Of a stretch of DNA of 64,000 nucleotides, positions 47,322 through 51,189 are shown piece after piece. Below the pieces are notes generated by a model. That model was not told where the DNA came from. It saw only the letters and a list, made by a program, of their open reading frames with translations, and searched no databases. The stretch is from Candidatus Curtissbacteria bacterium. GTDB lineage: Bacteria; Patescibacteriota; Microgenomatia; Curtissbacterales; GWA2-41-24. Positions within the stretch are counted from its first letter, which is position 1; every line of letters starts with the position of its first letter. The translations under genes and the position numbers were made by a program. The DNA is taken from assembly GCA_016183325.1 (NCBI GenBank), contig JACPEV010000013.1, positions 4,837-68,836 on the forward strand, given 5' to 3'.

Positions 47322-47721
47322 TTGTCAAGCGGTGTAGAATTAGTCGCGCGATATGCGAATACTGTTTGGTAATTTTTCTTCATTCTTACAAGTTCGCAAT
47401 TCATAGCTCTTTAACAACTGAAAAGTATGCCGCTTTTCAGTATTCTTTTGTTTGATCTTGATCCGCCTACGCTCTTCGAGCTTCGGCGGACTGCGAGTTC
47501 AAGCAAGCTTGAACTCTGAAAAGTGGCACCCAAAAAACCGGAAATCGGAATTCGGAAATCGGATTTCGGACTTTTTCTGAGATCTGATATCTGATATCTG
47601 AAATCCGGGAATAATCCTTAGAGTTATTTAAAATCGAGTTCAGATTAAATTCTTTTTTGAGAGTTTGATCCTAGCTCAGGATGAACGCTGGCGGCGTGCC
47701 TTAGGCATGCAAGTCGAACGG

Positions 47722-48155
47722 CCGGAGATCAGATTTCGGAAATCGGATTTCGGATATAATTAGAGAAGTGATGGATGTAACGGAATTGAGAGTGTATAGG
47801 CAATCATTAGATGCATTTCTATTAATTGAAGAGATTGCAAAACAATTGCCAAAAGAGTTAGCTGATACAAGAAGACAAATATTAAGATGCTCAAAAGCTG
47901 TTGCACCCATTATTGCAGAGGGTTTTGGACGTAGACATTCACAAAGAGAATTTGGACATTACGTAATTCAAGCTATGAGTTCTTCAGATGAGACAATAAC
48001 CCATTTGAGAACAATTGCTATTTCCAAATTTAATACTGTTTCAATCGATCAGTTGAAACATGCGGCGAGTGTCTATAAATCTCTTTCCAAACAACTCAAC
48101 AAACTTTTCACTTCTTTAATAGTCTGAAATCTGACTTCTGATATCCGATCTCCGG
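47722..48155 (+). other. intervening sequence in the 16S helix-6 region, bounded by inverted repeats and encoding a protein
   Basis: ccggagatcagatttcggaaatcggatttcgga (5' boundary) and tccgaaatc...atccgatctccgg (3' boundary) are inverted repeats around ORF 47768-48127. The mature 16S resumes with cagtggcggaagggtgagtaatg. Confidence 0.65.
47768..48127 (+). CDS. four-helix-bundle protein of the family known as rRNA intervening-sequence (S23-like) proteins
   Basis: LRVYRQSLDAFLLIEEIAKQLPKELADTRRQILRCSKAVAPIIAEGFGRRHSQREFGHYVIQAMSSSDETITHL matches the family pattern, including AEG[FY]GRR. Confidence 0.7.
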   Translation: MMDVTELRVYRQSLDAFLLIEEIAKQLPKELADTRRQILRCSKAVAPIIAEGFGRRHSQREFGHYVIQAMSSSDETITHLRTIAISKFNTVSIDQLKHAASVYKSLSKQLNKLFTSLIV

Positions 48156-48929
48156 CAGTGGCGGAAGGGTGAGTAATGCATAGGAACGTACCTTTTGGTG
48201 GGGAATAACCCGGCGAAAGCCGGGCTAATACCTCGTAATCCCGCAAGGGTATAGGGCTTAACCGCCCGCCGAAAGAGTGGCCTATGTCCTATCAGCTTGT
48301 TGGTGGGGTAATGGCCTACCAAGGCAACGACGGGTAGCTGGGCTGAGAGGTCGGCCAGCCACAAGGGAACTGAGACACGGTCCCTACACCTACGGGTGGC
48401 AGCAACCGGGAATTTTGGACAATGGGCGAAAGCCTGATCCAGCGACGCCGCGTGGAGGAAGAAGGCCTTAGGGTTGTAAACTCCTTTTGGCCCGCATAAT
48501 GCGGGCAGAATAAGCACCTGCTAACTACGTGCCAGCAGCCGCGGTGATACGTAGGGTGCAAGCGTTATCCGGATTTACTGGGCGTAAAGGGTTGCGTAGG
48601 CGGCTTGTTAAGTCAAAACTGAAATACTCTCGCTCAACGAGGGGGACGGTTTTGATACTAGCAGGCTTTGAGTCTTTCAGAGGTAGCTGGAACTTGCAGT
48701 GGAGCGGTGAAATGCGTTGATATTGCAAGGAACACCGAAGGCGTAGGCAAGCTACTGGGAAAGATCCCTGTACCATTCGGTACGGGACGGGCTGCATCGT
48801 AAGATGCGCCTAGTCTGACGCTGATGCACGAAAGCTAGGGGAGCGAAAGGGATTAGAGACCCCTGTAGTCCTAGCCGTAAATGATGGATACTAGATGTCC
48901 GGCTCGCAAAGTCGTATGACTTTGCGAGA

Positions 48930-49022
48930 ACATTTGACATTTAACAAATTAACATTTGACTATTGGAAAATTTTGTAAATTTTTTAAGTCAATTGTTAAA
49001 TGTTACTAGTTAATTGTTCGAG
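48930..49022 (+). repeat. insertion of about 90 nt in the 16S helix around E. coli position 840, built of 'acatttgaca/caattgtta' repeats
   Basis: gaacatttgacatttaacaaattaacatttgactattgg...gtcaattgttaaatgttactagttaattgttcg lies between conserved cgcaaagtc...gacttt and gctaacgcgttaagt. Confidence 0.55.
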
Positions 49023-49588
49023 CAAAATCGTAGATTTTGCGAGCTGGATGTCGCAAGCTAACGCGTTAAGTGTCCCGCCTGGGAAGTACGGCCGCAAGGC
49101 TAAAACTCAAAGGAATTGACGGGGACCCGCACAAGCGGTGGAGCATGTGGTTCAATTCGACACAAAGCGAAAAACCTTACCAGGATTTGACATCCTAACT
49201 GCACCCTAGTGGAAACACCGGGCTTCTTCGAGAGTGTTAGGACAGGTGCTGCATGGCTGTCGTCAGCTTGTACCGTGAGGCGCACCCTTAAGTGGGTCAA
49301 CAAGCGCAACCCCCATCCTGTGTTATATTTCACAGGAAACTGCCCGCTAAAAGCGAGGAGGAAGGTGGGGATGACGTCAAGTCAGCACGGCCCTTATGTC
49401 CTGGGCTACACACATCCTACAATGGGTATTTGACAACAGGTTTGCAATCCGGTAACGGAAAGCTAATCCCCAAAAATACCCTCAGTTCAGATTGAGGGCT
49501 GCAATTTGCCCTCATGAAGTTGAAATCGCTAGTAATCGCGGATCAGCAGGCCGCGGTGAATACGTTCTCGGGTCTTGTACACACCGCC

Positions 49589-50545
49589 AATTTAAAAAAC
49601 GCGCGTGGCAGCATAAATGGCTAGTTGGTTCAAATCCAACTCACGTTCATGAAACTGAACGTGATAGTCAAAAAAATTAGACAGTTCCGACAGAGTAATT
49701 TGTCGGTACGGAGGGTCTGAGACAAATAGCAGTCCATTTAAAAAAGTTCTTTTCATGAATGATCTCAGCCGGGCGGTTTGAGAGAAATTCAACTAATAAA
49801 GTAGAAGAATTGATGGAATGCTAGGAATAGTTATTTATGTAACCCATGGAGATCCTATCAGGAAGAGGTTATTATCTGGTAGGAAGTCAGCTGTTTCATA
49901 GTAAGTAAATTAGAGGATTGATTTTGTTGCTTGATAGAAGTAAACTAAATTAACCCGAATATTTACCGAAGGGAACAACGAAGTGATAACGTCAGATTAT
50001 ATTGTTGGTTTTACCGACGGCGAAGGCTGTTTTTATGTACAAATAAGAACAGATTTTCGTATCGTGCTTCGATATTTTATAACCCAACGATTTGACAACA
50101 AAGAAATCTTAGAAAATATTTTAAGATTCTTTGGAGTTGGATATGTGCATTTAAAAGCACAAGAGTGGGGTAGGGAATATAGAAGATCTCGGTTACCAAC
50201 ATATGTCTTTGAGGTGACTAAACAGGAACATATTCAAAATGTGATTGTTCCTTTCTTTAGAAAAAATCCACTTCAAGGAGTGAAACAGTTCTCTTTTGAA
50301 AAATTCGCAAAGATTGCAGACCTTGTAAAAGGTCGGCAAGACACGCGACTACTTTCTGAAGAGGAACTTGAATTAATCTGGCAGTTGAAACGTTCTATGA
50401 ATGTTTTAAACACTTCGGCTCGCCTGGTGCCGGAAATCGGCTCGCCGGTCCACCTACGCTAAAGCTACGGTGGATCCTCCGAAGCTCCAAAGGAGCGGAG
50501 GAGGAGTGGGAACGGGAACATACCTCTAAGTATCCCAATCCGTCA
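49589..50545 (+). mobile_element. intron-like insertion of about 0.95 kb near the 16S 3' end (around E. coli 1400), carrying a LAGLIDADG endonuclease ORF
   Basis: The conserved gtacacaccgcc is interrupted at about 49588. A 16S-like sequence (..cgtcaagcc..aagtcggtagtgcctgaag..gtcgtaacaaggta) resumes at about 50545. The exact boundaries are uncertain. Confidence 0.55.
49983..50462 (+). CDS. LAGLIDADG homing endonuclease encoded within the 16S insertion
   Basis: IVGFTDGEGCFYVQI is the LAGLIDADG motif. 159 aa. Confidence 0.8.
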   Translation: MITSDYIVGFTDGEGCFYVQIRTDFRIVLRYFITQRFDNKEILENILRFFGVGYVHLKAQEWGREYRRSRLPTYVFEVTKQEHIQNVIVPFFRKNPLQGVKQFSFEKFAKIADLVKGRQDTRLLSEEELELIWQLKRSMNVLNTSARLVPEIGSPVHLR

Positions 50546-51189
50546 AGCCAACAAAGTCGGTAGTGCCTGAAGTTCCTGCGCAAGCCGGACCCAAGGCAAG
50601 ACCGGTGATGGGGACTAAGTCGTAACAAGGTATCCGTTCTGGAAGGAGCGGATGGATCACCTCCTTTCTAAGGAGCTAAAGCTCCTATTCGCTGATTAGC
50701 GCTGATTTATTTGCGGATTTCCGCTGATAAGTCATCTGATTTCGAACGGGAGTCAAACAGGTTTGGCTCACGGGCCAAACGTGACGAATGGTGATTCGTA
50801 AAATTACCGGGTTATTTGCATGCCCAACATGCAATCTCTAGGAATAACATTTGACATTTAACATGTGACATTTGACTTTTTGTCAATTGTTAATGGTCAT
50901 TTGTCAATTGTTTCCGCCCGAAAGGGCGGAATGGGTGCCACTTTTGAGGATTTAAATAGAATACGAATTTATCCGAATGCTCCAACTATTTAAATAATTC
51001 TCTCGTAATTTATTCTTTCAATATTGATTAACTCGAACAGTTTCATCATGCGAATTTATACGAATAGGTATCGTAATTGTCCACCTTCGTGATAATTTTA
51101 GCCCCGAAGGGCGCAAGCTTTGCTTATTCTTCGAACGAGCGTAGCGAAGTGAGAAGTTTAGATAATAGTTCTCGCTAATCGCTCGAACA

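Follow-up and report, generated by a model that had tools for sequence, protein, structure and literature searches.

Four insertions of three kinds in the 16S rRNA gene of a Microgenomates-group bacterium, including a helix-6 intervening sequence with a four-helix-bundle protein gene and a group II-type intron with a divided domain V

What are the sequences that extend a bacterial 16S rRNA gene to about 3.0 kb, and how might they leave its transcript? The question is raised by a 64,000-nt stretch of DNA from a Candidatus Curtissbacteria bacterium (contig JACPEV010000013.1 of assembly GCA_016183325.1, positions 4,837 to 68,836; the whole stretch is called the window, and positions refer to it unless another locus is named). 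We are confident of the explanation as a whole: the four insertions in this gene fall into three kinds, and the host belongs to the candidate phyla radiation (CPR, or Patescibacteria), Microgenomates group. Helix 6 contains an intervening sequence (IVS) with a gene for a four-helix-bundle protein, helices 22 and 26 contain inserts without open reading frames (ORFs), and the 3′ part is interrupted by an insert that, by its sequence features, is a group II-type intron encoding a LAGLIDADG endonuclease.

The limits of the gene were set with the Rfam covariance model of bacterial small-subunit rRNA (RF00177, SSU_rRNA_bacteria), whose match starts at 47653 and scores 1165.6 bits. Alignment of the whole gene yields a false 3′ end at 49640; when 50480-50760 was searched alone, the true 3′ part was found at 50541-50667, extending to model position 1533 and ending GGAUCACCUCCUUU. 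A prediction made earlier from the sequence alone (the original prediction) had described a CPR-type 16S gene of this size with protein-coding insertions, and the Rfam match bears this out. The covariance-model alignment that it had proposed delimited the inserts; a 57-nt insert nested in the intron, which it had not noticed, came to light by comparison with the related contig L028. The original prediction had counted three interruptions; there are four, the 50-nt insert in helix 22 having been overlooked. Removal of the four rRNA inserts leaves a 16S of 1460 nt. The GC content of the helix-6 insert, the helix-26 insert and the intron is 0.35, 0.29 and 0.39, respectively, against 0.52-0.55 in the exons, while that of the helix-22 insert (0.59) is exon-like. 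The features of the locus are listed in Table 1.

Table 1. Positions in the window of the 16S rRNA gene, its insertions and the elements around it.
Feature	Positions	Strand	Evidence or remark
Promoter-like site TTGACA-17-TAGAAT, candidate rRNA promoter	47312-47340	+	Consensus scan 11/12, pattern match only
Leader arm of leader/trailer stem enclosing 16S	47509-47532	+	Inverted repeat I3, 24 nt, 83% complementary, partner 50932-50955
ORF-less heptad-periodic hairpin in 16S leader, same sequence type as helix-6 insert stem	47538-47612	+	Direct-repeat family D1; fold -37.8 kcal/mol, z = -7.3
16S rRNA gene with all insertions	47653-50667	+	Rfam RF00177
5′ arm of extended helix-6 stem, 7-nt units UCRGAnn	47722-47755	+	Inverted repeats, fold, covariation
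Helix-6 intervening sequence, about 415 nt replacing a 3-nt loop	47730-48146	+	cmscan alignment; GC 0.35
Gene for 118-aa Avd-like four-helix-bundle protein, pI 9.6	47771-48127	+	PF05635/TIGR02436, AlphaFold2 model, homologues
3′ arm of extended helix-6 stem	48122-48155	+	Inverted repeats, fold, covariation
50-nt two-hairpin insertion, 3′ strand of helix 22	48765-48814	+	cmscan; fold; GC 0.59
134-nt AT-rich hairpin extension of helix 26, heptad-periodic core 48929-49018	48913-49047	+	cmscan; fold -61.3 kcal/mol, z = -10.2; GC 0.29
Group II-type intron, 952 nt	49589-50540	+	One-C boundary ambiguity: 49588-50539 would end AAU
5′-terminal linker, exon to GUGYG-equivalent motif	49589-49600	+	Intron alignment
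GCGCG, equivalent of group II 5′ GUGYG	49601-49605	+	12-intron alignment
Exon-binding sequence 1, GGCGGU, hairpin loop, complementary to 5′-exon end ACCGCC	49772-49777	+	Alignment, fold
Conserved block GGAAGUCAGCUGUUUCAUAGUA upstream of ORF-bearing domain IV	49882-49903	+	Conserved in 12/12 introns
Single-motif LAGLIDADG_1 homing endonuclease gene, 159 aa, tail shortened by domain V insert	49983-50462	+	PF00961
Domain V: 5′ strand, loop, most of 3′ strand (CGC triad, GAAAU loop, 2-nt bulge)	50421-50448	+	Consensus structure, covariance model
Window-specific 57-nt insertion, two abutting hairpins in domain V 3′ strand	50449-50505	+	Absent from L028; fold
GUG pairing with CGC triad, domain V 3′ nucleotides	50506-50508	+	L028 alignment, consensus structure
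Domain VI-like hairpin ending AAU	50514-50539	+	Consensus structure; no bulged A on 3′ strand
Heptad-periodic hairpin in 16S trailer, same repeat type as helix-26 insert core	50846-50912	+	Repeat families D2-D4; fold z = -4.7
Trailer arm of leader/trailer stem	50932-50955	+	Inverted repeat I3

In the cmscan alignment the loop of helix 6 comprises 415 nt, compared with 3 nt in the Rfam model. An inverted-repeat search bounded this insert by 37-nt arms (47718-47754 and 48123-48159), and the whole insert folds at z = -8.3, in agreement with the long RNase III-type stem that had been proposed for it. Helix 6 is continued by a stem of about 33 bp between the arms 47722-47755 and 48122-48155, in which the UCRGAnn units give rise to blocks of five conserved pairs with two variable positions between them. 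Across eight loci 34 pairs are kept, six of them with compensatory double changes, and the UCRGA blocks hardly vary. A sequence closed by a long, near-perfect double-stranded stem has thus taken the place of a variable helix tip, which is the anatomy of an IVS. The region of the start codon of the four-helix-bundle gene, UUAGAGAAGUGA (47759-47771), pairs with the region preceding its stop codon, UCACUUCUUUAAU (48108-48120), so that the initiation site would be buried in an extension of the stem in the precursor. A perfect TATAAT (47755-47760) is located where the stem ends at its top, 10 nt upstream of the ATG; relatives have TATGAT or AGTGAT there. This hexamer could serve as an internal promoter of a near-leaderless mRNA; as a sigma-70 promoter the candidate found no support, since no -35 element was found.

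Hidden Markov model searches, which the original prediction had suggested for both ORFs, placed each of them in the expected family above its cut-off. ORF 47768-48127 matches PF05635 (E 2.3e-14; 53.9 bits, cut-off 33.8) over profile positions 2-106 of 106, and TIGR02436 (E 1.4e-14; 54.2 bits, cut-off 24), and hence encodes a member of the four-helix-bundle family known as ‘IVS protein’. The homologues all begin with MDV or MEV, which makes the ATG at 47771 the probable true start. An AlphaFold2 model (mean pLDDT 93.5) predicts four helices at residues 4-25, 29-54, 59-85 and 93-118, and Foldseek superposed it on 2GSC (Xcc0516), 2RLD (BT_0352) and the Avd protein of diversity-generating retroelements (4DWL; ribonucleoprotein 8UB7) with TM scores of 0.76-0.81 and rmsd values of 1.7-3.3 Å. 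The predicted fold is therefore the up-down four-helix bundle of these proteins, to which the window protein, which is basic, is only 12-19% identical. A sequence-profile search with the four-helix-bundle alignment returned no Protein Data Bank chain at E ≤ 0.01, and structural relatives emerged by fold comparison only. Among the neighbours scanned (43448-47321 and 52928-57168) there is no reverse transcriptase; a template/variable repeat pair was not searched for. The protein most plausibly binds RNA, and its pI would be compatible with a pentameric nucleic-acid-binding assembly like that of Avd; the model is that of a monomer.

Twenty-four close homologues (62-91% identity) all belong to PF05635, and wherever a contig is long enough to tell, the place of the gene is 115-135 nt into a 16S gene, at the helix-6 position. 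Their hosts include metagenome-assembled genomes (MAGs) of Curtissbacteria, Gottesmanbacteria and Levybacteria. Since the upstream gene order in the window (a glmS-like gene, a SpoU methylase gene and two pilin-like genes) is that of Curtissbacteria loci, the insert looks like one orthologous, vertically inherited locus. A scan of genome contigs recovered only six loci, because most MAGs either contain no 16S gene or are broken at it. Against nine relatives dN was 0.13-0.33; synonymous sites were saturated, and in the seven comparisons in which dS could be estimated dN/dS was 0.03-0.24. Of 12 loci, 11 have an intact ORF. Clear decay is confined, among the copies examined, to locus L015 (Patescibacteria MAG SMAG_U7874), which has a 136-nt insertion at 3804-3940 in the helix-6 insert and an altered ORF C-terminus. 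Purifying selection marks the ORF as a maintained gene and not a relic and, since it is seen in several Microgenomates lineages, argues that the ‘IVS protein’ has a function, with the periodic stem as its candidate RNA partner. In the Levybacteria locus L007 the 16S gene holds a second PF05635 ORF (5752-6138), in an 800-nt insert (5532-6330) after GCAUGGCU, at what we take to be about E. coli position 1058; this insert is preceded by U and ends in G, as a group I intron would be. A second site fits the published remark that such ORFs are scattered over several sites (PMC11270868).

The 3′ insert separates GUACACACCGCC from CGUCAAGCC (exon junction GUACACACCGCC/CGUCA), a site within decoding-centre sequence that, by E. 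coli numbering, we take to follow C1402 or C1403. With the ambiguous C assigned to the 3′ exon, the last nucleotides of the insert are AAU, and otherwise AUC; relative L022, which has an unambiguous junction, shows AAU at its intron end. Relatives were gathered with the LAGLIDADG protein, and an alignment of 12 introns, that of the window included, showed that the latter shares several conserved core blocks with the family. All 12 have GCGCN or GUGCC as the equivalent of the group II 5′ motif GUGYG, preceded by an A/U-rich linker of about 9-26 nt (12-13 nt in the window). The introns of loci L006, L007 and L010 are in loci that were found through the four-helix-bundle gene. They match the Rfam model group-II-D1D4-1 at 41-51 bits (threshold 35) directly upstream of a LAGLIDADG_1 ORF, and the block GGAAGUCAGCUGUUUCAUAGUA is located in or just before the matched stretch.

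In the window, exon-binding sequence 1 (EBS1) lies in the loop of a hairpin whose stem covaries, and pairs over 6 bp with intron-binding sequence 1 (IBS1) at the end of the 5′ exon. The introns occupy three neighbouring sites, which we presume to follow C1395, A1398 and C1402/1403 in E. coli numbering, and the loops differ with the site. After C1402/1403, in the window and five other introns, EBS1 is GGCGGU in 6 of 6 and the 5′ exon ends in ACCGCC; after C1395, the loop is GUACA or GUACU in 3 of 3, facing UGUAC; after A1398 it is UGAGU or UGGGU, again in 3 of 3, facing ACUCA. Closely related LAGLIDADG group II introns at three sites 3-8 nt apart, each with a matched exon-binding loop, make a compact natural case of retargeting.

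The intron's 3′ end was analysed with a covariance model of domains V and VI, built from six relatives with the window and its nearest relative, L028, excluded. The model scores held-out relatives at 47-81 bits, and its best match in the window is 50438-50539 (24.6 bits, E about 3e-5). In the family, domain V has an invariant CGC triad, paired C-G, G.U and C-G, a 2-nt bulge and a 5-nt loop of GAAAU type; five compensatory pairs fall inside domain V and nine among all 20 predicted pairs. The group II hallmark, a hairpin some 34 nt long that combines an AGC or CGC triad with a G.U wobble and a bulge of 2 nt, is therefore recognisable in the window, where the triad is CGC, even though the hairpin is split. 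A CGC triad in domain V is typical of class IIC.

The ORF of the intron matches PF00961 (LAGLIDADG_1; E 5.2e-16; 59.8 bits, cut-off 23.1) in a single stretch, residues 7-111, and has one motif, IVGFTDGEGCF, with its acidic residue. The predicted endonuclease is thus there, within the 1390-1405 region, as a putative homodimeric enzyme of the single-motif type; it has 156 homologues. A CPR relative, I-ShaI, cleaves the intron-less target site (PMC11270868). In relatives (L017, L028 and proteins P0026-P0038) the ORF meets no stop before domain V and stays open across domains V and VI as far as the 3′ exon (...PEIGSPGGNGNKPLFIPIRQANKV), which is why gene callers give proteins of 176-193 aa; in the window the 57-nt insert brings a stop codon, and the C-terminal tail is lost. 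L001-L005 and L010 are loci of Curtissbacteria relatives that share the upstream synteny and the helix-6 insert. Instead of the group II intron, L001-L005 have another 3′ insert (5976-6671), which contains a LAGLIDADG_3 gene, and L010 carries both types (LAGLIDADG_3 insert at 6236-6748). Introns thus turn over, and the helix-6 insert stays.

How these insertions would leave the transcript can be proposed from known systems. In Coxiella burnetii a 428-nt 23S insert with an S23p ORF is excised by RNase III without religation (PMC4990558). The 23S inserts of Coxiella and Leptospira resemble the helix-6 insert in their size (about 420 nt), their place at a helix tip, their long complementary stem and their PF05635 protein of about 120 aa; the Coxiella insert lies in helix 45 of 23S rRNA, that of the window in helix 6 of 16S rRNA. 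By analogy, an RNase III-type enzyme would most likely cut the long helix-6 stem from the precursor, again without religation, leaving a 5′ fragment of about 70 nt and the 16S body. For the intron, removal by ribozyme splicing is expected, the first step of which is probably hydrolytic; the intron would spread at the DNA level by means of its homodimeric endonuclease.

Several points weigh against this account. What the analysis establishes is anatomy, family memberships, conservation, covariation and purifying selection; from these we infer excision by RNase III and the resulting fragmentation, splicing and its chemistry, and the function of the protein. The ORF in the helix-6 insert is preceded by neither a convincing Shine-Dalgarno sequence nor a complete promoter, and the S23p ORF of Coxiella, in contrast to the intact and constrained ORFs of the present loci, is reported to be decaying, untranslated and not made in vivo (PMC4990558). 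The intron does not begin with GUGYG, its GCGCG being displaced by 12-13 nt, and matches no Rfam group I or group II family even at E ≤ 10. The 3′ strand of its domain VI-like hairpin has no bulged branch-point A, although L006 and L007 may have one. When EBS1 loops were compared with the exon ends of the other sites, the 1403 and 1395 classes separated cleanly and the 1398 class did not; this control was crude and too permissive, as it allowed G.U pairs and stem residues. Lastly, the 57-nt insert splits domain V beside the catalytic triad, lowers the score of the domain V-VI model from about 77 to 24.6 bits and could abolish self-splicing.

This last point leads to the alternative that survives best, although we consider it doubtful: that the window intron has lost self-splicing through the 57-nt insert, so that its 16S rRNA is non-functional, depends on trans-acting help or is left in pieces. 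In the 3′ strand the insert is flanked on one side by the G whose partner is nucleotide 4 of the 5′ strand and on the other by the GUG opposite the CGC triad, and so parts the triad-pairing nucleotides from the rest of that strand; it costs about 50 bits of model score, and it is present in none of about 40 relatives with sequence through domain V. Yet there is no other 16S gene in the window (Rfam), and CPR genomes usually have one (PMC11270868); exons and remaining intron sequence are intact and, over the exon-intron-exon span, about 97% identical to L028, which is without the 57 nt. The insert itself consists of two hairpins, each closed by 6 bp, that abut with no unpaired linker, and domain V would thereby become a perfect four-way junction whose original halves are able to stack. 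A closed hairpin pair that adds no junction nucleotides resembles a tolerated insertion and not random damage. We therefore favour an intron that still splices; the insert makes the tolerance of the catalytic domain V testable and, if this reading is true, group II domain V can be a four-way junction. BLAST found no second copy of the insert in the window, and the sequence at 914-970, which is covered by an unannotated minus-strand ORF (503-1354), is unrelated.

The tips of helices 6 and 26 are on the solvent side of the subunit, where inserts could be borne as surface expansion segments. That both inserts stay in mature 16S rRNA, with the ORF expressed from a separate internal transcript or left untranslated, is nevertheless unlikely. 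The TATAAT close to the ATG makes a separate leaderless mRNA conceivable, but it is accompanied by no -35 element; both inserts are much richer in A and T than the exons; and stems of at least 33 bp are classic RNase III substrates, the closest analogue, that of Coxiella, being excised by this enzyme (PMC4990558). Passages of Tsurumaki et al. that cite Brown et al. 2015, moreover, have CPR rRNA insertions removed from the transcripts (PMC11270868). Excision of the helix-6 insert thus remains the better explanation.

An assembly chimera or artefact, which the original prediction had named as a finding that would overturn it, is very improbable. Assembling rRNA genes from metagenomic data is difficult, many contigs of relatives break in or beside the 16S gene, and the 57-nt insert is seen only in this window. 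Against this, the helix-6 architecture recurs in more than 10 independent assemblies (NCBI, JGI and ENA), and L028, an independent contig, matches the window across both exon-intron boundaries. The inserts are placed precisely at the tips of helices or between two exon halves that together restore the universal sequence, their stems covary, and the 57-nt insert, two perfect hairpins with no linker nucleotides, is unlike a misjoin. The reading of the 3′ insert as a group I intron with its usual LAGLIDADG passenger, for which the original prediction had advised a search for P-Q-R-S elements, is effectively refuted: such genes are typical of group I introns, GUCUGAGACAAAUAGCAGUCC (49716-49737) loosely resembles an R/S-type core by eye, and L007 has its group I-like insert at another 16S site, but the 5′ exon ends in C and not U, the insert ends in AAU(C) and not G, Rfam group I models find nothing at E ≤ 10, and the covarying domain V, the GUGYG-like motif, the EBS1 loop and the Rfam matches of relatives all point to group II.

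Insertions of these types have been catalogued in CPR bacteria by Tsurumaki, Sato, Saito and Kanai (2024, J Bacteriol, PMC11270868), whose Table S4 counts 18 ORFs of the 23S_rRNA_IVP type in 16S inserts and four in 23S; 15 of the 18 are in inserts that match no intron model, and the authors state that their result agrees with Brown et al. 2015. The view that an IVS-family protein in 16S is unusual is hence outdated, and with it falls the main novelty argument of the original prediction. The same study lists, for CPR 16S genes, 53 inserts of group II-like type near position 1400 (site ‘16IS9’), 39 of which carry a single-domain LAGLIDADG_1 gene. The window resembles this catalogue in its multiple inserts in a single-copy 16S gene, its IVP ORF, its LAGLIDADG_1 gene at about 1400 and its short hairpins in variable helices. 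The arrangement is thus already described as a class for CPR bacteria, of which the window is a clean, fully dissected example. The text of that study does not name helix 6 as a site of the four-helix-bundle ORF, nor does it describe the heptad-periodic stem, purifying selection, the sites 1395, 1398 and 1403 with matching exon-binding loops or the domain V insert; the conservation of the helix-6 insert with selection on its ORF, the heptad stem, the three-site retargeting and the domain V insert appear to be absent from the literature examined. Under the Rfam-based method of PMC11270868 the window intron would score ‘no hit’, and classification by Rfam only therefore undercounts group II introns in CPR rRNA genes.

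For rRNA group II introns with LAGLIDADG genes, Salman et al. 2012 is reportedly among the sources. Such introns with a LAGLIDADG homing endonuclease (group II-LHE introns) have a 5′ linker before a GUGYG-like motif and show loss of the branch site (PMC4424553, PMC13190283). The window intron is like them in its rRNA host gene, in an endonuclease that replaces the reverse transcriptase, in its 5′ linker and in having no clear branch-point A. One bacterial family, rns-1396, has a backbone reported as IIC (PMC4424553, PMC13190283) and a single-motif endonuclease, as in the window. The introns of L006, L007 and L010 lie exactly at 1395/1396, the rns-1396 site; the window intron lies 7-8 nt downstream, with a retargeted EBS1 and the 57-nt insert in domain V. 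A 2026 survey reported bacterial group II-LHE members only in Thiotrichaceae (PMC13190283).

The two ORF-less inserts may be retained as expansion segments or trimmed. Near model position 720 the cmscan alignment has 54 nt where the model has 3, that is, about 50 extra nt, which presumably lie between about A749 and C750 of E. coli according to a hand alignment. This helix-22 insert is absent from five relatives, except for a short stretch in L006. Its geometry is that of the 57-nt domain V insert, an abutting hairpin pair that turns a helix into a four-way junction, and the two have no sequence similarity. The loop of helix 26 has 134 nt (about 48913-49047) compared with 4 in the model. The limits of the repeat-built expansion described in the original prediction (48930-49022) enclosed only the inner repeat core.

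The periodicity of the helix-6 stem is not confined to it. Hairpins whose arms consist of four to five tandem 7-nt units (five paired and two variable nucleotides) are found at 47538-47612, 48929-49018 and 50846-50912, and there are further heptad hairpins, several of them between genes, at 62458-62540, 29620-29712 and 43446-43552. Their folds have z values from -3.4 to -10, and Tandem Repeats Finder (TRF) detected numerous period-7 arrays throughout the window. Some of the period-8 repeat pairs located elsewhere gave no significant fold. Candidate roles of the heptad hairpins are those of terminators, RNase III sites or protein-binding sites. A hairpin of UCGGA type without an ORF sits in helix 26 of L007 and L010. 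That an ORF-less UCRGA-type stem recurs in the leader of the 16S gene and, in relatives, in helix 26 allows a bolder and rather improbable proposal, namely that the helix-6 insert is no passive selfish remnant and instead a domesticated module, in which the Avd-like protein recognises the 7-nt-periodic UCRGA stem and guides or protects the processing of pre-16S rRNA, combined with a domain V that tolerates its four-way junction.

Neither 23S nor 5S rRNA was found in the window at Rfam gathering thresholds, and the 16S gene is followed by genes for tRNA-Cys, tRNA-Ile and proteins (a short-chain dehydrogenase, a PIN-domain protein and a LacI-type regulator), so the rRNA genes are apparently unlinked. 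Rfam matches to MIR8562 (35 bits versus 211), Spy1186876 and RUF1 were dismissed as chance matches to hairpins or AT-rich sequence. Downstream of the 16S gene, between tRNA-Cys (51845-51917) and tRNA-Ile(GAU) (52658-52732), lies a near-perfect tandem repeat of 48 nt in 5.1 copies (51929-52174, 98% matches), and smaller repeats are present at 51189-51253 and 52805-52912.

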